Below are positions 965 through 64,000 of a stretch of DNA of 64,000 nt, piece after piece. The stretch is from a virus. Under the pieces are notes generated by a model. That model ran no database searches. It saw only the letters and a list, made by a program, of their open reading frames with translations, and had not been told where the DNA came from. A program made the position numbers and the translations under genes. The stretch's first letter is position 1; every line of letters begins with the position of its first letter. The DNA is taken from positions 1 to 64,000 of IMG/VR virus record IMGVR_UViG_3300022592_000003; one strand, given 5' to 3'.

Positions 965-1239
965 TGTCTATATCCCATGCTCGTATTGCTGTTAATAGCA
1001 CTACCCCAGTAGCTATAACAAACTTGTCAGACACGTTTACCTCAGTAACTGTTCAGGTGCAGAACCTTGGTACAGGAGTTGCATATCTAGGGGGTGCCGA
1101 TGTTAGCGCAACATCCTACGGTGTAAGCATTGTTTCAGGTGGTGCAGTGACTGTTGATGATCTTCCTGCTTCTGATGAACTATACGTTATTCACCAAGAC
1201 ACCTCTGCATATGTAGCAGTACTGCGGGTGAGCCGATAA
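964..1239 (+). CDS. small beta-rich virion protein
   Basis: TAATG coupling; VQVQNLG..YLGG..V...YG pattern typical of small phage structural proteins. Confidence 0.6.
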   Translation: MSISHARIAVNSTTPVAITNLSDTFTSVTVQVQNLGTGVAYLGGADVSATSYGVSIVSGGAVTVDDLPASDELYVIHQDTSAYVAVLRVSR

Positions 1240-2531
1240 TGGCAAACATCCATTATTCCAACTCAGGCGGTGTAGGTCCACAGGGTTCTCCAGGACCACA
1301 AGGAAATCCAGGAGCCACTGGAGCAGCTGGAGCCACTGGCCCTAAAGGCGATAAAGGTGATACTGGAGCTCAAGGACCTAAAGGTGATACCGGAGCCACT
1401 GGGGCAGCAGGCACTAACGGCACTAATGGTACTAATGGTACTAATGGTGCAGCTGGCGCAACTGGTGCTACTGGACCACAAGGACCTAAAGGAGACAAAG
1501 GTGATACCGGAGCTCAGGGTTTTTCAGGGGCAAACGGAGCCACTGGCCCACAAGGACCGCAAGGTCCTGCAGGCGTAACAAATGTGCATGCCGCCGTTGT
1601 TGCAGCCACTACCGCACCATTAAGCGGTGTGTGGACTTACCATGCAGGTAGCGATGGATCTGATGGTGGAACTGGGCCAGGCGCTAATTTCACATCTACA
1701 ACTGTAGGAACTATTGGGCTTGATAGTCAAACACTCGCACAAAACGACCGCATACTTATTAAAAATCAAACAGACGCTAAGCAAAATGGCATTTATGTAG
1801 CAACTCGTATGGCTTCTGGTGTGACCCCTATTCTTACTCGTGCTACAGACTACGATAACAGCACAGTGGGTCAAGTAGCTCAAGGTGACCAAGTACTTGT
1901 TCTCAATGGAACCCTTAACGGAAACAAGACTTTCTTTGAAAGTTTAACTGGAACTATGTCCGATTACAGCATTAAGATTGGCACGGACAACATTGTCTTT
2001 GCTCAAGCAGCCAGCCTTAATAACATCTCTACGGATGTACTTCCTGCCCTAGATAACACCTACAATTTAGGTTCAGATGCCCTTCGCTGGAAGTCTGTAC
2101 ACATTGGACCTGGAACACTATTTATTACAGATCAAACCACAAATAACCCAGCTAGTTTGACGGTTAATAACTCCATTCTTAATATCAACGGTATCTCTAA
2201 CCTTAGCGCTCAATCAATTACTACAGGCGTTAGAACCACAACATCTAACACTGTACAAATTGACTACCTAACTGACTCTATTGTCTTTGTTAGCGTAGCT
2301 GGGGGAACCGTCACTTTTACTCACACTAACTACACTGCGGGTAAGGTAGTTAAGGTTATTGTTAACCGATATGCCTACACATCTGGGGCTCAAGATAACC
2401 ACGGAGTTGGCAGTACCCACGCTACCTCTGGAAACTCGTTTTTCTTGCCTACCCATAACACAGCAGAGTATGAGTTCACCTGCTTAGATGGAACTAATGC
2501 AAATGTATTTGTATCGGGAAAAATTAGCTAA
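1239..2531 (+). CDS. collagen-like (Gly-X-Y) fibre protein
   Basis: About 100 aa of GXY repeats, then a DRILIKNQT..QNGIYV...LTRATD fibre-type domain and a YNLGS...RWKSVH motif. Confidence 0.8.
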   Translation: MANIHYSNSGGVGPQGSPGPQGNPGATGAAGATGPKGDKGDTGAQGPKGDTGATGAAGTNGTNGTNGTNGAAGATGATGPQGPKGDKGDTGAQGFSGANGATGPQGPQGPAGVTNVHAAVVAATTAPLSGVWTYHAGSDGSDGGTGPGANFTSTTVGTIGLDSQTLAQNDRILIKNQTDAKQNGIYVATRMASGVTPILTRATDYDNSTVGQVAQGDQVLVLNGTLNGNKTFFESLTGTMSDYSIKIGTDNIVFAQAASLNNISTDVLPALDNTYNLGSDALRWKSVHIGPGTLFITDQTTNNPASLTVNNSILNINGISNLSAQSITTGVRTTTSNTVQIDYLTDSIVFVSVAGGTVTFTHTNYTAGKVVKVIVNRYAYTSGAQDNHGVGSTHATSGNSFFLPTHNTAEYEFTCLDGTNANVFVSGKIS

Positions 2532-2674
2532 TGCCTTTTAAATCTCAAGCTCAACGCCGTGCCCTGTATGCTAAAGACCCTAAGTTAGCTGCGGAGTTTG
2601 AGGCTAAAACCCCTAAGGGAAAGAAACTCCCAGAAAAGGTGAAGAAAACAAATGGCAACAAAAAAAGCAAGTAA
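2531..2674 (+). CDS. 47-aa Lys-rich protein (not in ORF track)
   Basis: MPFKSQAQRRALYAKDPKLAAEFEAKTPKGKKLPEKVKK...*, TAATG-coupled to the upstream gene. Confidence 0.75.
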   Translation: MPFKSQAQRRALYAKDPKLAAEFEAKTPKGKKLPEKVKKTNGNKKSK

Positions 2675-2822
2675 GAAACACCCAGGCTTTGAAAAGGCTT
2701 CTGAGAAGATTGCTAAAAAGGAAGGCGTCTCGAAAGAGTCAGCCGACGCTATTTTGGCAGCATCTTCACGAGGAGCTTCAAAGAGCGCCAAGAAGAAAAA
2801 CCCACGACTAAAGAAGGTATAA
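2652..2822 (+). CDS. 56-aa Lys/Ala-rich protein (not in ORF track)
   Basis: MATKKASKKHPGFEKASEKIAKKEGVS...KKKNPRLKKV*. Confidence 0.75.
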   Translation: MATKKASKKHPGFEKASEKIAKKEGVSKESADAILAASSRGASKSAKKKNPRLKKV

Positions 2823-2823
2823 T

Positions 2824-2904
2824 ATGTGCAAATCATGCGGATGCGGATGCTCTAAGCCTAACTGCAAGGGCGCCTGCAAAAAGAAAAAAGGCGGTAAGAA
2901 GTAA
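2824..2904 (+). CDS. 26-aa Cys/Lys-rich micropeptide (not in ORF track)
   Basis: MCKSCGCGCSKPNCKGACKKKKGGKK*; AAGAAGG RBS; TAATG-coupled to the next ORF. Confidence 0.65.
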   Translation: MCKSCGCGCSKPNCKGACKKKKGGKK

Positions 2905-3104
2905 TGGCTAAGTCAGATAAAGAACAAGACGCAAAGCTTAAGAAGAAGATGACCCCAGCTCAGAAGAAGAAGTTTGACGCTGCGGACAAGGAGATGGACA
3001 AGACCAAACCTACTCGTAAAGAAGACGAAAAGATGGACAAGGCTTTGGCCGAGAAGATCACCAAAAAGTCTCCGGCTAAGAAGAAGGCCGACAAAAAGAA
3101 ATAA
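2904..3104 (+). CDS. Lys-rich small protein
   Basis: ORF ends ...KKSPAKKKADKKK. Confidence 0.75.
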   Translation: MAKSDKEQDAKLKKKMTPAQKKKFDAADKEMDKTKPTRKEDEKMDKALAEKITKKSPAKKKADKKK

Positions 3105-3109
3105 GCTTT

Positions 3110-3132
3110 AGAGCCCCGAAAGGGGCTCTTTT
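3110..3132 (+). terminator. intrinsic terminator
   Basis: AGAGCCCC-GAAA-GGGGCTCT followed by T-rich tail. Confidence 0.85.
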
Positions 3133-3207
3133 GCTTTATTATTGCTGTTGACGCCGGAGGAATCCGGAACCCTGCTGCTTTACCTTGCGCCTTCCTATGG
3201 AGGAAAT

Positions 3208-49409: not shown

Positions 49410-49874
49410 ATGGCTACGGCACTCATCTCAGTAGAGGGAGTAATGAAGACCGAAGGTGGGGACCCGATTCAAGAGGGTATCCGACTCTATCGCATCCTGG
49501 CTGAACACTATCGGGTGGTAATCTGCTCCGACCTATCTGAAGACCTAACAGAGCATTGGCTACGAGCCAATATGATTGTCGGCTATGCCGATATCTATGA
49601 CACTCGCCATTTCTTTGAGGGTCAGGATTTGCGGGCCCGACACCTAGACCTAGCTTTACAGCGGGGTCGAGTAGCTCTATTTGTAGATCCCGATGCGGAT
49701 CGGTGCGCCTATGCACTCTCTAAGAACGTAACTACTCTCATGTTTGCTGAACCTAAGTTTGTCCGTACAACCCGTATGGTCAAGCCTTGGGACGAGCTGA
49801 AGGTTGAGATTGAACGTCAGCGGGATGCCCTTCTTGATGCTCACCTCGGAAGTCAGATTAAGCGGTACGAATGA
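49410..49874 (+). CDS. HAD-fold protein with degenerate motif I
   Basis: ALISVEGVM (in place of hhDhDGVh), PI.EG..LY, VVICS, LFVD.D. Confidence 0.6.
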   Translation: MATALISVEGVMKTEGGDPIQEGIRLYRILAEHYRVVICSDLSEDLTEHWLRANMIVGYADIYDTRHFFEGQDLRARHLDLALQRGRVALFVDPDADRCAYALSKNVTTLMFAEPKFVRTTRMVKPWDELKVEIERQRDALLDAHLGSQIKRYE

Positions 49875-51349
49875 ACATTGTCTTCATGGGCGGTGAAGTA
49901 CCCTCACACAGGATCCTCCTGGCTAATGCCGGAGTTAAGCACATCAGCGTCAACTACTTCAGGTTGGTAAAGCGTGGTCTCCCAAAGACCAAAGACTACC
50001 TACTTAAAGAGCGGTTCCCTGATGACGTCCTCATCTATGTAGATGGCGGCGGCCACCAGATCAATGATCTCAACATGACACAGCGGGAGCTCGAAGAGTA
50101 TGCCGCTGACTACCAGGACTTCATTACTATTAATGAGGATAGAATCCACCTCGCAACCGAGTTGGATGCCAAAGCTTTGGGCCCTAACTGGATCAACCAC
50201 CAGCGTCGTACCTTTTGGGAGGATTTTGGCCTAGAGCGTGCCTCTATGGTGTGGCACTCAGAAACAGGCCATACTGGTCTCTACAACCTCGCAGAGCAAT
50301 ATCTCAACGTTTCTATCTTGGGTGAGTCTATCGAGGACGATACGAGCCTCTCAGCCCGTTCTAGGGCCCTTTTGAGCCAGTTTCCTGACCTGCAGTTCCA
50401 TGGTGTAGCATGTGCTAAGCCAGATAATTTGAGGCAGGTACCGGTAACCACAGCTGCTACCCTTTCTTGGCTAAGTCCTATGATGAGAGGTGAGACAATT
50501 GTCTGGGATGGCACTAGACTAGTCCGCTACCAGAAGAAACAGAAAGACCAGGCTCGACCCCGCTACAAGGCGATCATCGAGAAGGCTGGGCTGGACTTTG
50601 ACAAGATTATTAATGACGATAGTAACGAGGTTACCCGCCTCGCCATCTGGAGTTATCTGCAGCTAGAGAATTCATTAGACAAGCAAAGGAAGCCCATGTT
50701 ATCTGATCAGAGTGATCCACTAGATAGTGCAGGTTCTGCGGAAACTAGGGGTATCAGTCCTGATAACAGAGGGTCTGAGGTGCGGAAAGATTTGACCGCC
50801 CGCAAGCCTGAAGACATGCAAACCCTGCCAGTTTTCGGGGTTACGAATAAGACTATTTTCGAGAAAGACGTTGATGGCAGGGATGTTATCAGGGAGGCTC
50901 CGGTATTAGAGAGCACCCATACTTCCTTCCGTCAGTGCAACACCTGCTTCGTTGCAAGCAATTGTCCGGCCTTCAAACCGAACAATTCTTGTGCCTTCAG
51001 CCTCCCGGTAGAGATTAAGACCAAGGAGCAGTTGAAGGGATTACTCAACGCAATTATCGAAATGCAGGGCGCTAGAGTCGCTTTTGCACGTTTTGCGGAG
51101 GAATTAAACGGCGGATACCCGGATCCAAACACCGGGCAGGAGATTGACCGACTCTTTAAGATCGTAAATGAGGTCAAGAAGTTAGAGGAGAACAAGGAGG
51201 TTCTCCGCATGACGGTGGAGCGTCAAAGCTCAGGAGGAGTCATGTCAGCACTATTCGGAGACCGGGCCAACACCCTAAAGGAGTTGTCTGGAAATGGGTT
51301 AAGTGAAGGGGACGCCAGCAAAATAATCAAAGACCAATTAGAAGGATAG
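49871..51349 (+). CDS. TGT/DpdA-like TIM-barrel protein fused to a 4-Cys/helical C-terminal domain
   Basis: IYVDGGG (cf. hDSGG), FHG, LSWL...RG; C-terminal CNTC.....C........C. Confidence 0.55.
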   Translation: MNIVFMGGEVPSHRILLANAGVKHISVNYFRLVKRGLPKTKDYLLKERFPDDVLIYVDGGGHQINDLNMTQRELEEYAADYQDFITINEDRIHLATELDAKALGPNWINHQRRTFWEDFGLERASMVWHSETGHTGLYNLAEQYLNVSILGESIEDDTSLSARSRALLSQFPDLQFHGVACAKPDNLRQVPVTTAATLSWLSPMMRGETIVWDGTRLVRYQKKQKDQARPRYKAIIEKAGLDFDKIINDDSNEVTRLAIWSYLQLENSLDKQRKPMLSDQSDPLDSAGSAETRGISPDNRGSEVRKDLTARKPEDMQTLPVFGVTNKTIFEKDVDGRDVIREAPVLESTHTSFRQCNTCFVASNCPAFKPNNSCAFSLPVEIKTKEQLKGLLNAIIEMQGARVAFARFAEELNGGYPDPNTGQEIDRLFKIVNEVKKLEENKEVLRMTVERQSSGGVMSALFGDRANTLKELSGNGLSEGDASKIIKDQLEG

Positions 51350-53799: not shown

Positions 53800-53820
53800 A
53801 AAACGGCCAACACAAACATT

Positions 53821-55248: not shown

Positions 55249-55388
55249 CCCTTTACCTCCCAATCGTCACATACGGATTGAACTGCATCATCTAGATCTG
55301 CACAGAGGAGTTCGATCTCATCCTCTGACCAGTCAGCTACCATCAAGCGTGTTACTTTTGCTTGCCAGACTACTTCGTTCTCAGGCAT
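55245..55388 (-). CDS. 47-aa acidic protein (not in ORF track)
   Basis: AGGAG RBS; MPENEVVWQAKV...WEVKG*. Confidence 0.6.
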   Translation of the reverse strand: MPENEVVWQAKVTRLMVADWSEDEIELLCADLDDAVQSVCDDWEVKG

Positions 55389-55854
55389 TTAGTGCTCCTG
55401 TCTCGTAGGTGAGTATTGCTGCTTCATCGCTGAAACATTCTTCAACGATCTTTGGGTGAACTTCTTCCCGCATTACACGGAAAGAATCTCTAGGCCAGCC
55501 TTGATCCATAACCCTAGTAAGTAAATTAGCTAAGGCATAGTCTGGGTAGGTGGTGTTTGCGTACTTCAGAAGTTGTGCTGCCGCTTCATCCTGCCCTAAC
55601 TCGTAGCGGAACACTGCTTGGATTGTAATGAATGGGGCTAGATCTTCAGACGGTGCCTTGCGACACATATACTCGATAAACTCAAGACTGTCTTCAATAC
55701 CCCACTTCACTGGAGCACCCATCAACCAGTCCCTAACCTGTAGGTCAGAGTTAACGCCTAAGATAACCGCCTCTAACTTTTCACCGTCTAAATCAATTCC
55801 GGTGTTTAGTGTCTCGGTGATTAACTCACATACTAGCTTTCTTGTTACTATCAT
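55381..55854 (-). CDS. DUF4192-like helical protein
   Basis: D.QVRD.L...AP....A...YELG....A...L......PDY.LA.LL. Confidence 0.6.
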   Translation of the reverse strand: MIVTRKLVCELITETLNTGIDLDGEKLEAVILGVNSDLQVRDWLMGAPVKWGIEDSLEFIEYMCRKAPSEDLAPFITIQAVFRYELGQDEAAAQLLKYANTTYPDYALANLLTRVMDQGWPRDSFRVMREEVHPKIVEECFSDEAAILTYETGALNA

Positions 55855-60795: not shown

Positions 60796-61296
60796 TTAGT
60801 ATTTACCCTGGGCTTTTTCCATGACTACAACGTCAACAGAGTTTTGTGTACTGTTAACGAGGATGTCATGGAAAGCACCATGGTCCATCTGCTTACTTAA
60901 AGCACCGGCTACAGTACCTAAGTAATTTCCTGCACTGCCTGGCTTATTACGGAGAATAGCCCGTGTAGCCACTACAGTTTCACCCCATGCATATGCAAGA
61001 GGCGCTAGATATTCACTGTATGCCTTCACAGTGTTATCCATTCCATCAGGTGTGCCAGCGATAGCAGCAGAAAGAATCTCGAGGGTGCGAGATCTTTCTT
61101 CAGTATCTGCGTTTGACAACAGGAAGCTCATTACAGCATCCCTGAAGTTTGTAGATATCTCGCTCATCTGTACTAGATTGCGAGGAACTAAGCCACCTCT
61201 AAGGTACTGCGATGCAAGAGCAGGATCCGTTGTTTCACCTGACATGTATGCAGCGATAGAGATGTTAGGATCATAATTAACTTTGAGATCCAACAT
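60796..61296 (-). CDS. helical protein, possibly DUF4192-like
   Basis: FRDA...LA.LAYAWGE...A. Confidence 0.55.
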   Translation of the reverse strand: MLDLKVNYDPNISIAAYMSGETTDPALASQYLRGGLVPRNLVQMSEISTNFRDAVMSFLLSNADTEERSRTLEILSAAIAGTPDGMDNTVKAYSEYLAPLAYAWGETVVATRAILRNKPGSAGNYLGTVAGALSKQMDHGAFHDILVNSTQNSVDVVVMEKAQGKY

Positions 61297-62014
61297 ATGC
61301 GGCTACCATCCTTTCTAGTTCGTTCATTGGTTGTTTTACTATGTTGCCATTCTGTACTCTGATAGGCGAACCATCCCAAAGTACAGAAACCTTTTTATTC
61401 CCATAGTCACGCTTGCCAAGACCGTTACATGACCAACACATTTCTGTTAGTTTTGTTAGGTGACTGTCTGTTTGATTATGACTACATTCGAGTTGGTGAT
61501 ACTTTCTCCAATTATTTGAAGGCTGTGCGCCTGGATGATCAGGGCAAATAAATGTCCCATCCTCAGCAGTACTACCTACAAAACAAGTTGGTGGATTACA
61601 CCAGCCATCTATTTTGCCGATCTGCCTACACATACGGCAGCCTTGGGTCTTTGATGGGGTAAACGCAGCATCACGTTCGGTGATATAGAATTTGAAATTA
61701 CGGCGGTTAACTTGAATACCGGCATACTTCCAGATGGTATATCGCATGCTCTGACTATCTAAGCAATTGAATGATCCACCCCAATGGGTAGATACCTGAC
61801 CACCTTGTAAGGTCATAGTATCGTCAGGGTGAATTGTGATTAGTGGGTGCCTGTTAGTCCATTGATTGACTATCTGTATGTCGCTAGTCTTATTGAACTT
61901 GTTGGCATACTGAATGCGATTGCGTTGACCGTCATAGAGCGTACGCTCCCATTTCTTACGGCCATTAGCAAGATACGATTGCCATTCAGCATACGTATGA
62001 ACTCGCCAACTCAT
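61277..62014 (-). CDS. Cys-rich hypothetical protein
   Basis: CRMC..G, CWSCNG.G (DnaJ-like zinc pairs). Confidence 0.7.
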   Translation of the reverse strand: MSWRVHTYAEWQSYLANGRKKWERTLYDGQRNRIQYANKFNKTSDIQIVNQWTNRHPLITIHPDDTMTLQGGQVSTHWGGSFNCLDSQSMRYTIWKYAGIQVNRRNFKFYITERDAAFTPSKTQGCRMCRQIGKIDGWCNPPTCFVGSTAEDGTFICPDHPGAQPSNNWRKYHQLECSHNQTDSHLTKLTEMCWSCNGLGKRDYGNKKVSVLWDGSPIRVQNGNIVKQPMNELERMVAAYVGSQS

Positions 62015-62322
62015 TGCGCCTCCGCTGTCTCAAATAAACCTGCATAGCAGGCTACAGGAGCTGGATCCTCCATGTCAACATACTGGAGTTCGATAACACG
62101 CTCACGGTCACGCTCGAGTGTTTGTGTTGGCTCATTATCGAACCACACAGATGTGAGTGATATCACAGATGAATCAGGTTTGAGTAACTTGAGGGCAAAC
62201 CCCAAGCCATCCATCAAGCCACTGTGGTATGCACGACTATGCTGATGGTCATCCCAATGCAGGTCATCGTGCTCCTCAACTATCTGTTGCTCTATAGCCT
62301 TTACTATCTTCTTGCGCTTCAT
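62011..62322 (-). CDS. hypothetical protein
   Basis: ATGA-coupled. Confidence 0.65.
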   Translation of the reverse strand: MKRKKIVKAIEQQIVEEHDDLHWDDHQHSRAYHSGLMDGLGFALKLLKPDSSVISLTSVWFDNEPTQTLERDRERVIELQYVDMEDPAPVACYAGLFETAEAQ

Positions 62323-62591
62323 ACTAGTGACTTACCTAGTAGGGAAACAGACTGAGGGTTGTAAACCTTGCCTGTCTTCCAATGAGGTATTGATTTGTGA
62401 TCAGCACGACCACCGGCAGCCTTCCAAGCCTCACGCTTTTCGTGGCTCTTGAGAGTACGACCGTTGACATGTGTGAAGTTAGACTTCTCCATCTGTGCTG
62501 GTCCTGGGTTTTGCTTGCGAGCCTTACCGTTCTTACGGTCACCCGCTGTGTTTGCTTTCGGAGTTGATACTCCGCCTTTACCTTTTGCCAT
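62319..62591 (-). CDS. basic hypothetical protein
   Basis: GAAAGGGG RBS; Lys/Gly-rich. Confidence 0.7.
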   Translation of the reverse strand: MAKGKGGVSTPKANTAGDRKNGKARKQNPGPAQMEKSNFTHVNGRTLKSHEKREAWKAAGGRADHKSIPHWKTGKVYNPQSVSLLGKSLV

Positions 62592-62611
62592 TGTCTGGCC
62601 CCTTTCGGAGG

Positions 62612-62866
62612 TTAGTAGATTGTCTCTACACTGCTGTGTAGAGTTGTGATGCCATCCTCATCCCATAGGAATGAGGCTTCCTTGTAGGTCAGTCCCTTAT
62701 AGGCAACCGCATCTACAATGAATTCTAGTCGTGCGATAGAGCGTTCAAAGACTCCTTGAACAGTCTCATCAATCAGTAATATGCGTCCTTGCTTGAAGGC
62801 TTGTTCTTGTACCTCAGCAATAGTTAGCTTAGGTGAGAGGCGCATCTCAAGATATATATCGTCCAT
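62612..62866 (-). CDS. hypothetical protein
   Basis: TAATG-coupled. Confidence 0.65.
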   Translation of the reverse strand: MDDIYLEMRLSPKLTIAEVQEQAFKQGRILLIDETVQGVFERSIARLEFIVDAVAYKGLTYKEASFLWDEDGITTLHSSVETIY

Positions 62867-63132
62867 TATTTATGCCAATCTACTAGATAGGTTGTGCCCC
62901 ACTTATCATAGGGAATGTTGATGATGGTCCAAATCTTCCACCACCTATATCCTGCTCGTGATAGTTCAGTGCCGTTGTAATGGGCAAAGTCTTCATGATC
63001 TAATGCTCGCTCTATCGCAAAACTTGATAGATGATTGCAAGCATTGGCAAACCACCTGAGTGGCAAGATGTTGGTCTTGTGCTCTGGTGTGGTTGAATAC
63101 TCAAACCTACCGTGCAAGTCTTCCGGTTCCAT
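62866..63132 (-). CDS. hypothetical protein
   Basis: AGAAAGGAG RBS. Confidence 0.7.
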   Translation of the reverse strand: MEPEDLHGRFEYSTTPEHKTNILPLRWFANACNHLSSFAIERALDHEDFAHYNGTELSRAGYRWWKIWTIINIPYDKWGTTYLVDWHK

Positions 63133-63154
63133 AGTTACTCCTTTCTATTAGTAA

Positions 63155-63182
63155 TGAGCAGTTTATAGAGATGCTCAGCTCT
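63155..63182 (-). ncRNA. H-type pseudoknot copy A
   Basis: AGAG-CUGAGCAU-CUCU-AUAAAC-UGCUCA. Confidence 0.6.
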
Positions 63183-63229
63183 TGGCGAGGGAGGTTTTCT
63201 GACTACAAGTCATCCCGCACTCCGTGCCG

Positions 63230-63302
63230 TGCCCTCAGCCAGAATCGAACTGGCAACACTCACCTTAGGACGATGATGTTCTATCCATTGAACTATGAGG
63301 GC
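63230..63302 (-). tRNA. tRNA-Arg (anticodon CCU), CCA not encoded
   Basis: GCCCTCA acceptor stem; GTTC/GAAC D arm; TCATC-GTCCTAA-GGTGA anticodon arm; GCCAG-TTCGATT-CTGGC T arm. Confidence 0.93.
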
Positions 63303-63303
63303 G

Positions 63304-63334
63304 TAAGCAGTTTAGCCTTGTCATGCTTAGGACA
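63304..63334 (-). ncRNA. H-type pseudoknot copy B
   Basis: UGUC-CUAAGCAU-GACA-AGGCUAAAC-UGCUUA. Confidence 0.6.
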
Positions 63335-63423
63335 GGAGTTCTTTTACCTCAGGAAGAACTATAGAAACCAACCACATGTGGACTCTCGTCTCTTAGACCA
63401 CTTAATGTGTGTTATTAAATTGT

Positions 63424-63867
63424 TTAGCGGATGAACTGAGCCCAAGTAGATGTTGTTGTGATCTTGAACTCAGTATCTGTTGAGCCTTGGATGATTGCGA
63501 TAGCATTTTCTACCTGATCGTAATCACTCAATGGCTTGCTGTAGTTTCGAGTTTTATACTCAGGACTACGAGAACACTGTGGGTATTTACCCAAGGCTGC
63601 CTCTAGTTCTGTAGTATCAAAGTAGATACTGGCACGATAGCTATTCGCATAGCCTCCTATACCGATATCAAACTTTGTTGCCTTAGCGATGTTCTTCTTG
63701 ACCCATGCTTCGGCCTTCTTTTCCCAAGCGGCACGACGCTTTTCAATGGTGGCAGAGTCTTTTTCCCACTCTGTTATCTCATCGTCCATACGCTTGATTG
63801 TTGCTTTTAACTTGGCGACTAGATCTTTCTTAGCCCAAGTTGTTGCGATTACCTTGGTTGAGGTCAT
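63424..63867 (-). CDS. hypothetical coiled-coil protein
   Basis: AAAGGAGG RBS before ATG 63867. Confidence 0.75.
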   Translation of the reverse strand: MTSTKVIATTWAKKDLVAKLKATIKRMDDEITEWEKDSATIEKRRAAWEKKAEAWVKKNIAKATKFDIGIGGYANSYRASIYFDTTELEAALGKYPQCSRSPEYKTRNYSKPLSDYDQVENAIAIIQGSTDTEFKITTTSTWAQFIR

Positions 63868-63933
63868 GGTAATAGCCCTCCTTTGTTGTACGTGGTCCCC
63901 ACCACGGCTGTGGCGGGGCGTGTTTGTGTTGGT

Positions 63934-63964
63934 GCATGTTTTATAGACCACATGCTCTGCGTCT
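63934..63964 (-). ncRNA. H-type pseudoknot copy C (divergent)
   Basis: AGAC-GCAGAGCAUGUG-GUCU-AUAAA-ACAUGC. Confidence 0.45.
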
Positions 63965-64000
63965 TCATGTGCATACCATCTCTATACAGTCAGAACTAAG

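Follow-up and report, generated by a model that had tools for sequence, protein, structure and literature searches.

A compact RNA pseudoknot recurring between genes and before tRNA genes of phages, with a possible role as a roadblock in polycistronic messages

The locus and its three elements

The 64,000-nucleotide (nt) stretch of viral DNA analyzed here (the window), which comprises bases 1-64000 of the 89,242-nt IMG/VR virus record IMGVR_UViG_3300022592_000003, carries near its end three short elements, A, B, and C, located in a minus-strand arm of small genes that are treated in this report as the early genes of the phage. A reading of the sequence alone had described the three as small H-type pseudoknots with compensatory changes. 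Here we report that A, B, and C are strand-specific RNA pseudoknots under strong selection at unit boundaries, and that a knot of this kind, of about 28 to 31 bases, is used by hundreds of unrelated phages, between genes and just before tRNA genes, and is not in Rfam.

Element A (63182-63155; all features below are on the minus strand unless marked otherwise) is a canonical 28-nt member and reads AGAG-C-TGAGCA-T-CTCT-ATAAAC-TGCTCA. Its first helix, P1, pairs 63182-63179 with 63170-63167 (AGAG/CTCT, with G-C as the closing pair), and its second, P2, pairs 63177-63172 with 63160-63155 (TGAGCA/TGCTCA), leaving the loops L1 (C63178), L2 (T63171), and L3 (ATAAAC, 63166-63161). Eight nucleotides past A lies the ribosome-binding site (RBS) AGAAAGGAG (63146-63138) of the open reading frame (ORF) ORF88 (62866-63132), the gene downstream of A, with its ATG at 63132. 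A itself begins 46 nt past the 3' end of tRNA-Arg(CCT) (63302-63229; detected by ARAGORN and by the Rfam tRNA model at 59.7 bits). On the other side of this tRNA gene is element B (63334-63304), TGTC-C-TAAGCA-T-GACA-AGGCTAAAC-TGCTTA, the end of which is separated from the tRNA 5' end by the single base C63303. In B, P1 joins 63334-63331 to 63322-63319 (TGTC/GACA) and can be extended by CC/GG across a bulged A (63336-63335 with 63317-63316), P2 joins 63329-63324 to 63309-63304 (TAAGCA/TGCTTA), and the loops are C63330 (L1), T63323 (L2), and (AGG)CTAAAC (L3). Element C (63964-63934) belongs to a divergent subtype and reads AGAC-GCAGA-GCATGT-G-GTCT-ATAAA-ACATGC; its parts are P1 AGAC/GTCT, a 5-nt L1 (GCAGA), P2 GCATGT/ACATGC, L2 G, and L3 ATAAA. 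One nucleotide past C begins the 12-mer CCAACACAAACA (63932-63921), and the gene downstream of C is ORF147 (63424-63867). The three elements thus exist letter for letter as first described, and the spacings claimed for them (B 1 nt before the tRNA, A 8 nt before the RBS, and C 1 nt before the 12-mer) all hold. A reading frame through B-type copies was considered and rejected by eye: an ATG is present, but it is immediately followed by TGA in locus L020 and in the window the frame runs into the tRNA.

The number of elements within this genome carries little weight. A strict scan of the whole record on both strands, requiring four Watson-Crick pairs in P1, six in P2, an L1 of 1-6 nt, an L2 of 0-2 nt, and an L3 of 4-10 nt containing TAAA, yields exactly A, B, and C, out of 54 sites with any L3. 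Dinucleotide-shuffled sequences (n = 200) give a mean of 0.55 sites, and 13 of the 200 contain three or more; as the pattern was, moreover, defined post hoc, the in-genome count is weak evidence, and within this genome alone the observation is real yet not significant. A relaxed scan produced 87 matches and no additional convincing copy. Support for the elements comes instead from covariation across related and unrelated phages.

Compensatory changes among close relatives

Eleven relative loci were recruited via two neighboring proteins (L001 designates the locus of the source record itself, and L002 onward other loci). The B-tRNA-A arrangement also occurs in L002-L004, so that the tRNA is present in 3 of the 11, and in these loci the copy of A is identical to that in the window. 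The tRNA is missing from the other eight: six of them (L005-L008, L011, and L012) have one canonical B-type element, and L009 and L010 have diverged copies at the tRNA-less site. The single element of the six combines P1 and L3 of B with, in most cases, P2 of A (TGAGCA/TGCTCA), and in L005, L007, L008, and L012 it is followed by an A-like downstream flank. As B-tRNA-A is confined to L002-L004 and the window, with a single element in the other relatives, the tRNA together with one element copy behaves as an inserted cassette. The genes downstream of B-type copies vary among phages.

The B-type copies were sampled by searching IMG/VR with an 18-mer from an invariant block upstream of B, outside the knot. 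In the resulting alignment of 16 sequences including the window (13 distinct), both helices are kept in all, and 247 of 247 pair cells (100%) form standard pairs. Substitutions in both partners are seen at five pairs, of which two belong to P1 (GT/AC to CA/TG in L020 and L022) and three to P2; these paired substitutions account for nearly all the changes in an otherwise invariant stretch of about 70 nt. The covariation score of 0.152, as against 0.058 in shuffles, was reached by 0 of 500 shuffled alignments, and slid controls gave 0; the events are few, and P1 possibly changed only once, in the L020/L022 lineage. In L022 (minus strand) we observed a second knot in tandem about 30 nt after the B-type knot, CCTC-C-TGAGTA-T-GAGG-AATACAAAC-TGCTCA. 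Approximately 190 nt past this second knot are non-coding, as are more than 100 nt past the knot in L018 and L023, and these stretches may represent further small RNAs.

Homologues of C are positioned between conserved upstream sequence and the 12-mer CCAACACAAACA, and display three P1 sequences and six P2 arm sets. In their alignment, the rows of which were first located by a scan that requires pairing and in which MAFFT misplaces a gap in L027, pairing is kept in 98.6% of 69 cells, five pairs have both partners substituted, and the score was reached by none of 500 shuffles. The ORF147 homologues of L006, L009, and L010 have no C-type copy ahead of them, and, as far as we saw, C is a divergent subtype confined to relatives of this phage.

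A very large family in unrelated phages

The family to which A and B belong is very large, and its consensus is NNNC-C-UGAGCA-U-GNNN-(N)nAAAC-UGCUCA; A fits the family pattern CTGAGCAT-N6-AAACTGCTCA. In a pattern search over phage sequences, A/B-type patterns match from 56 to at least 120 IMG/VR stretches each. Sorted by the second P2 position, the Watson-Crick forms G-C and A-U match at least 120 and at least 117 stretches and G.U at least 113, these totals and their ratios to A.C being lower bounds, and A.C matches 56, which is a complete count; the family statistics rest on the matches listed. Among the instances listed for the two Watson-Crick forms, the six-base spacing of A is seen in 209 of 258, where chance would spread the spacings evenly over 5-10, and P1, which lies outside all the patterns, is strictly Watson-Crick in 179 of the 258.

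Both helices were then assessed, each with the other as the anchor. When P1 was left out of the search, all four of its pairs (Watson-Crick or G.U) formed in 313 of 411 non-redundant copies, compared with 34.3 for shuffled partners; the 411 copies include 42 distinct Watson-Crick P1 stems, and the closing pair is C-G in 367 and G-C in 17. When P1 was required and P2 left free, 258 of 317 candidates had six of six P2 pairs and a further 44 had five of six, so that 302 of 317 had at least five in the true register; when the register was moved 12 nt downstream as a control, 3 of 317 did. In all, 21 distinct paired P2 arm sets were recovered (e.g., TGGTCA/TGACCA and TAGACA/TGTCTA). Since L1, L2, and AAAC are fixed in the family patterns, their conservation is in part a matter of ascertainment; they are likewise invariant in the unbiased B-type set, with L2 being C in L009, and across copies the L2 base can be U, C, G, or A. 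The sequence-only reading had proposed that P1 differs in sequence yet remains paired and that P2 covaries, and had named the absence of covariation in a larger alignment as grounds for abandoning the idea; compensatory changes in both helices are present in the 16 B-type sequences, in the C-type set, and in the wider family.

The nature of the mismatches indicates which molecule is folded. Among 233 loci matched by the all-Watson-Crick patterns, single non-Watson-Crick P2 positions are of the G.U type in 14 cases and of the A.C type in 0, with 11 further mismatches at terminal pairs. This asymmetry is not expected of a site in duplex DNA, and hence the fold is that of an RNA from the gene-sense strand. 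It bears directly on the possibility that the repeat acts as DNA, either as a promoter, with the TAAACT or TATAAA of L3 as a -10-like box, or as a gene-shuffling cassette resembling the PeSLs, which are composite promoter/terminator motifs at the indel junctions of T4-like phages (PMC4122927; PeSL cassettes of T4-like phages are also treated in PMC2839356). There is a resemblance to the latter: both are short repeats between small early genes at indel junctions, the inserted gene here being a tRNA flanked by B and A, and the hybrid make-up of the single element in tRNA-less relatives and the differing genes downstream of B-type copies are in keeping with a shuffling cassette. Further, in B, TAAACT is followed after 6 nt by the first G of the tRNA, and -10-like hexamers are about twice as common at -18 to -9. 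PeSLs, however, are DNA signals, an early promoter with a terminator stem-loop, whereas the phage knot lacks a fixed promoter, and its sequence constraint is that of an RNA pseudoknot. In duplex DNA, neither compensatory changes within two interleaved helices nor the predominance of G.U relative to A.C would make sense; no conserved promoter hexamer, whether -35 or -10, was found at a fixed distance among 241 copies; the final T of a -10 box is missing from C and from most of its homologues; and a sigma-70 scan of L001 returned 1 site, against 6.5 expected, away from the elements. We therefore consider a DNA-level element very improbable, and recombination at the repeats may be a by-product. 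That the element is an RNA pseudoknot, apart from any function, we hold with high confidence.

The family has left little trace in existing resources. Rfam searches at E<=10 of the window at 62000-64000, L001 at 1400-2800, L113 at 1050-3050, and L217 at 2350-3200 recovered tRNAs and chance matches far below gathering scores. In blastn comparisons with cultured phages, 63140-63400 and a stretch with a knot plus tRNA-Asp matched by their tRNA parts only, and 61000-64000 gave no match. The motif was not found in phages in a search of the literature, within which supplementary sequence lists do not fall. A scan of a genome collection matched at least 119 stretches; most spacings there resemble the background, and the N=6 class stands out, with 61 among the matches listed and P1 fully paired in 20 of them. 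As the organism names in this collection are bin labels, no host range is drawn from them. Two of its loci, L348 and L364, carry canonical copies with paired P1 upstream of an ATG on contigs binned as Methanobrevibacter (binning unverified); if this binning is right, the motif reaches archaeal viruses.

Position of the copies relative to genes and tRNAs

The placement of the family was examined in 263 P1-paired copies, the gene calls being crude. In 237 of the 263, a same-strand open frame of at least 60 codons ends within 200 nt upstream, and the distance from its stop codon to P1 is sharply bounded: of these 237, 99 have a distance of 5-9 nt (exactly 5 nt in 37 and 6 nt in 27), and only 3 have one below 5 nt. 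This 5-nt floor roughly matches the expected position of the leading edge of a ribosome that has the stop codon in its A site. Start codons lie 10-40 nt past the knot in 103 of 153 cases, with a broad distribution. Same-strand tRNA 5' ends are found 1-13 nt past the knot in 17 of 411 copies, with none at 14-87 nt, and upstream tRNA 3' ends lie 45-141 nt from the knot (n = 8). The notion that the elements bracket the tRNA and gene starts accordingly fits this window, and family-wide it gives way to a different emphasis, as the upstream stop codon and the tRNA 5' end are held at tighter distances than the start codon. The eight bases after the knot (+1 to +8) contain 2-11% G, and the flank shows neither conservation nor conserved pairing.

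Among 243 copies with called gene context (again with crude calls), 151 are flanked by co-directional genes on both sides, 47 on the upstream side only (with a convergent gene opposite in 23 of these), and 22 on the downstream side only, and 13 are inside called genes. Where a stop codon adjoins the knot (n = 86), it is TAA in 64, TAG in 14, and TGA in 8, compared with 57% TAA over all called genes. Read-through or recoding at these stops was rejected as a candidate role, the adjacent stop codons being TAA enriched and TGA depleted.

These distances speak for a ribosome-directed boundary element, which would insulate cistrons by blocking post-termination sliding, read-through, or re-initiation, or would tune termination, with no block to nucleases; geometrically, the knot would meet the leading edge of the terminating ribosome and lie at the trailing edge of the initiating 30S subunit. 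The 64 of 237 copies at exactly 5 or 6 nt after the stop, with 3 closer than 5, and the preference of start codons for the next 10-40 nt are in keeping with it, and the coremin motif of eukaryotic RNA viruses, discussed below, is reported to block scanning ribosomes and to stimulate -1 frameshifting (PMC10520033, PMC10321173). It sits poorly with A, B, C, and the 17 of 411 pre-tRNA copies, none of which is beside a stop codon, and with the 23 of 243 copies at convergent gene ends, which have no downstream cistron to insulate; the usage of TAA and TGA at adjacent stops speaks against its read-through or recoding versions. On balance, we regard this role as unlikely.

The genes that follow the knot are heterogeneous: 153 downstream proteins fall into 93 unrelated clusters, and the contigs bearing the motif have very different compositions, belong to bins of many phyla, and share no neighboring gene. 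This disfavors a ligand-sensing riboswitch, since the downstream genes are unrelated. The sequence-only reading had likened the A-rich L3 to compact folds of the preQ1/SAM-II type and had entertained ligand binding, and preQ1-I (RF00522) and SAM-II do resemble the phage knot in size, H-type topology, and L3; the phage also encodes, at 49871-51349 of the record, a protein matching a PHROG family annotated as queuine tRNA-ribosyltransferase. The likeness did not survive comparison with covariance models: at E<=10, neither preQ1/SAM-II nor any other Rfam family matches the knot in the four stretches named above, even on canonical copies. Moreover, L1 consists of one base, the identity of L2 changes between subtypes, loops of a ligand pocket are lacking, there is no coherent set of regulated genes, and copies also occur before tRNAs and at convergent gene ends. 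A riboswitch is thus hardly credible.

The largest of the 93 clusters, with 13 of the 153 proteins, consists of homologues of ORF147, a phage-only family of about 140 amino acids; in unrelated contigs no other gene is found as often immediately after the motif, and its products are 21-29% identical to ORF147 along their full length. This raises the possibility that the knot is an operator for a phage-encoded RNA-binding regulator, such as an ORF147-family protein, controlling the translation or stability of several early genes, in the manner of T4 gene 32 or regA. An operator would account for a strongly conserved loop and P2 alongside a P1 that is free to vary, and for several copies on one contig (e.g., three each in L113, L121, and L217), and ORF147 itself follows C. 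Set against these points, ORF147 relatives follow only 13 of 153 copies, and the compositions and bins of the contigs are too diverse, with no common neighboring gene. Nor does ORF147 possess a recognizable RNA-binding domain in searches of Pfam, PHROG, and a protein atlas: Pfam gave only a weak YlqD match below the cut-off (E = 0.0067), PHROG one family of unknown function (E = 0.0046), and the protein atlas only look-alikes that are hypothetical viral proteins. We judge an operator to be quite unlikely.

A further alternative is that the knot obstructs a 5'-to-3' RNA translocase other than a nuclease, especially Rho acting on untranslated leaders and tRNA genes, and thereby prevents premature termination of early transcription. 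The knot is found where translation ends and untranslated RNA begins, the stretch that follows it is G-poor and C/U-rich, and in L032 a copy is followed after 8 nt by a terminator-like hairpin. A block upstream of a loading site, though, would have no effect on Rho that loads past it, and two copies are on the contigs that the unverified binning assigns to Methanobrevibacter, an archaeon in which Rho would be missing. A barrier to Rho seems improbable to us.

Features adjoining the elements and genome setting

Directly upstream of B is the invariant 37-nt block GGTTGGTTTCTATAGTTCTTCCTGAGGTAAAAGAACT (63337-63373), which shows no variation in the 16 B-type loci except at one A/T position inside TAWAGT, and the core of which, CCTGAGGTAAAA, survives in the diverged copy of L009. 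A 7-bp hairpin is possible within it (63360-63354 with 63343-63337), the 7 of 7 pairs of which never vary, 18 bases of the block being fixed by the search pattern. The block may serve as a promoter or a protein site, or it may form additional RNA structure.

The 12-mer CCAACACAAACA after C is one of 8 exact copies in the record, the others lying in the window at 53807 (plus strand) and at 62130, 60795, 59559, 57768, 56754, and 55052 (minus strand, as is that at 63932). Every copy has the sense orientation of the genes around it, whether it falls in coding or non-coding sequence, and in relatives it recurs at homologous sites, within the ORF103 homologue, right past stop codons, and before RBSs. 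It is also found directly after C-type knots and after one B-type knot (L020). The ORF147 leader also contains a covarying hairpin, CCCCGCCAC-AGCC-GTGGTGGGG (63897-63918), located past the 12-mer and ahead of the RBS; by eye, L005 and L008 have different stems at this position. Upstream of ORF147, just past the window edge at record positions 64000-64300 (L001 2400-2700), about 350 nt are non-coding between its start and a strong terminator-like hairpin with a T-run (around 64219-64269 of the record); this region contains a long hairpin around 64160-64215, matches no Rfam family, and is partly conserved (68%) in L002-L004.

The same 89,242-nt record encodes a tail sheath protein, DNA polymerase I, and ribonucleotide reductase. 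Its DNA polymerase is closest to those of Streptomyces phages, at about 39% identity, and the DNA runs containing the stretch are pond, freshwater, and viral metagenomes. Past the window edge, at 64658-65008 of the record (minus strand; L001 3059-3409), a 116-amino-acid ORF is WhiB-like by its cysteine pattern, as read by eye, and within the window a DUF4192 protein is encoded at 55381-55854 (minus strand); these two indicate an actinobacterial host, and we take the source phage to be a freshwater actinobacterial myovirus.

Likeness to known RNA elements

The closest known element to the phage knot is the coremin motif GUCCGAAGACGUUAAACUAC, or xrRNA-C, of beny-, cucumo-, and other eukaryotic RNA viruses, which stalls the exoribonuclease Xrn1, blocks scanning ribosomes, and drives -1 frameshifting (PMC6546385, PMC10520033, PMC10321173). 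As described in these papers, its first hairpin, hp1, has 3-5 bp, with a stem that may covary and a C-G closing pair; the hp1 loop is YGAD (4 nt) or YGNNAD (6 nt), and the C at its first position can be replaced only by U; the spacer is GUUAAACUAC, of which A16-A20 are essential, with an AAACUA core; and a second hairpin, hp2, is needed directly downstream for Xrn1 stalling. In an xrRNA-WCC variant, loop bases 6-8 form Watson-Crick pairs with spacer bases 18-20 (PMC6546385, PMC10520033, PMC10321173). The strings "phage" and "bacteri" have 0 occurrences in the available portions of PMC10520033, and phages are likewise unmentioned in those of PMC6546385 and PMC10321173.

The phage knot and coremin share a short first stem that may covary and is mostly closed by C-G, a pyrimidine at the first loop position (C in the phages; C or U in coremin) that acts as L1, presumably in coremin as well, and intergenic or untranslated-region positions. 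They also share, in A and in the N=6 copies, the distance from the closing G to AAAC(U), with six bases between CAT and AAAC, and some N=6 copies read GTC-C...GAC-GTTAAAC-T. The antiparallel Watson-Crick pairing of loop to spacer has its parallel in xrRNA-WCC, and in the phage knot it covaries; it differs there in comprising six pairs, in a register shifted by one base, rather than three. Relative to coremin proper, the second stem (S2) of the phages consists of six Watson-Crick pairs instead of non-canonical contacts; the loops are of 8 nt, CUGAGCAU in A and CUAAGCAU in B, and of 12 nt in C, with only the first Y and the last A-D fitting; the base matching coremin A20 is G, and the spacer in C is AUAAA; and the hosts of the knot are DNA phages of prokaryotes, which are without Xrn1. 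With its 8-nt loop, its 6-bp S2, and no hp2, the phage knot is not a coremin member by the published criteria. It may nonetheless work like one.

A second parallel is offered by the luteovirus-type knot BWYV-PK. This is a minimal H-type pseudoknot that stimulates -1 frameshifting and combines a very short L1 with a single base at the junction and an A-rich L3. These features recur in the phage knot, which likewise lies 5-9 nt downstream of an A-site codon and differs in following stop codons (TAA in 64 of 86) in non-coding spacers. Features of -1 frameshifting were looked for at the phage knots, and no slippery site or overlapping frame was found, the upstream codon being a stop. BWYV-PK is drawn beside coremin in PMC10321173.

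A possible roadblock at the boundaries of expression units

Considering the position of the knot together with its likeness to coremin, a nuclease-blocking or processing-linked role is the best-fitting reading, and the knot probably serves as a compact barrier by which pieces of the phage message are protected or kept apart. Stated in full, we propose, tentatively and with confidence a little short of even, that the knot acts as a roadblock, small and mechanically stable, where expression units of polycistronic phage RNA meet. Its layout comprises a P1 of 4 bp, a short L1, a P2 of 6 bp formed between the P1 loop and 6 nt past the spacer, an L2 of 1 nt, and an A-rich L3 with AAA(C) at its end. 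It would be placed as near to the upstream stop codon as the terminating ribosome permits and just ahead of the next RBS or tRNA; being clear of ribosomes on both sides, we infer, it stays folded. Cleavage in the G-poor spacer behind the knot, or by RNase P at an adjacent tRNA in the case of B, would precede the arrest of an exonuclease. The knot would then stop processive exonucleases and so define and protect the end of the upstream segment; possibly it would also protect the 5' end of the downstream segment, in a coremin-like manner, as might apply to A and to C in the ORF147 leader. On the present locus, B would cap the ORF147 segment once RNase P releases the tRNA, A would head the ORF88 message, and C would head the ORF147 message.

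Several observations weigh against this proposal. Each helix alone is only marginally stable (P1 at -1.8 to -2.6 and P2 at -2.8 to -6.1 kcal/mol). None of A, B, and C adjoins a stop codon: B follows the ORF147 stop by about 88 nt, A follows the tRNA by 46 nt, and the leader that contains C is long. At 46 nt past a tRNA, a knot would hinder 3' trimming rather than aid it, and the 5-nt floor after stop codons is equally compatible with a ribosome-directed role. The comparison with coremin is weakened at two points: the phage knot has no conserved hp2, its downstream flank being G-poor and unconserved, and A is closed by G-C, a pair that abolished Xrn1 resistance in a BNYVV construct (PMC6546385), whereas B (TGTC/GACA) and C (AGAC/GTCT) are closed by C-G. 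Contigs of the freshwater metatranscriptome run X20 cover 63334-63606 and 63679-63863, the former ending at the first base of B, and the DNA contigs of run X10 likewise break at 63331; since contigs cannot show RNA ends and the DNA contigs break there too, X20 is neutral on an RNA end at B.

A bolder form of the roadblock proposal, which we think rather unlikely, is that the knot is the prokaryotic-virus counterpart of the exoribonuclease-resistant RNAs (xrRNAs). It would be a 28-nt directional, rigid block against 5'-3' exonucleases of the RNase J type, and perhaps against ribosomes and Rho, allowing DNA phages to divide their polycistronic RNAs into individually protected units, with a core shared by descent or convergence with the coremin of plant, fungal, and insect RNA viruses. 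If the roadblock reading holds, the knot, which is absent from Rfam 15 and the searchable literature, would be among the smallest conserved RNA folds and also among the most widespread in phages. It would provide a simple sequence marker by which cistron boundaries and sites of RNA processing could be located in the genomes of uncultured phages, and a 28-nt portable part with which synthetic operons might be stabilized or insulated. It would also account for the same repeat framing both tRNA genes and small early genes, repeats that may double as recombination points for swaps of gene cassettes, and would link the strategies of bacterial and eukaryotic viruses against RNA decay.

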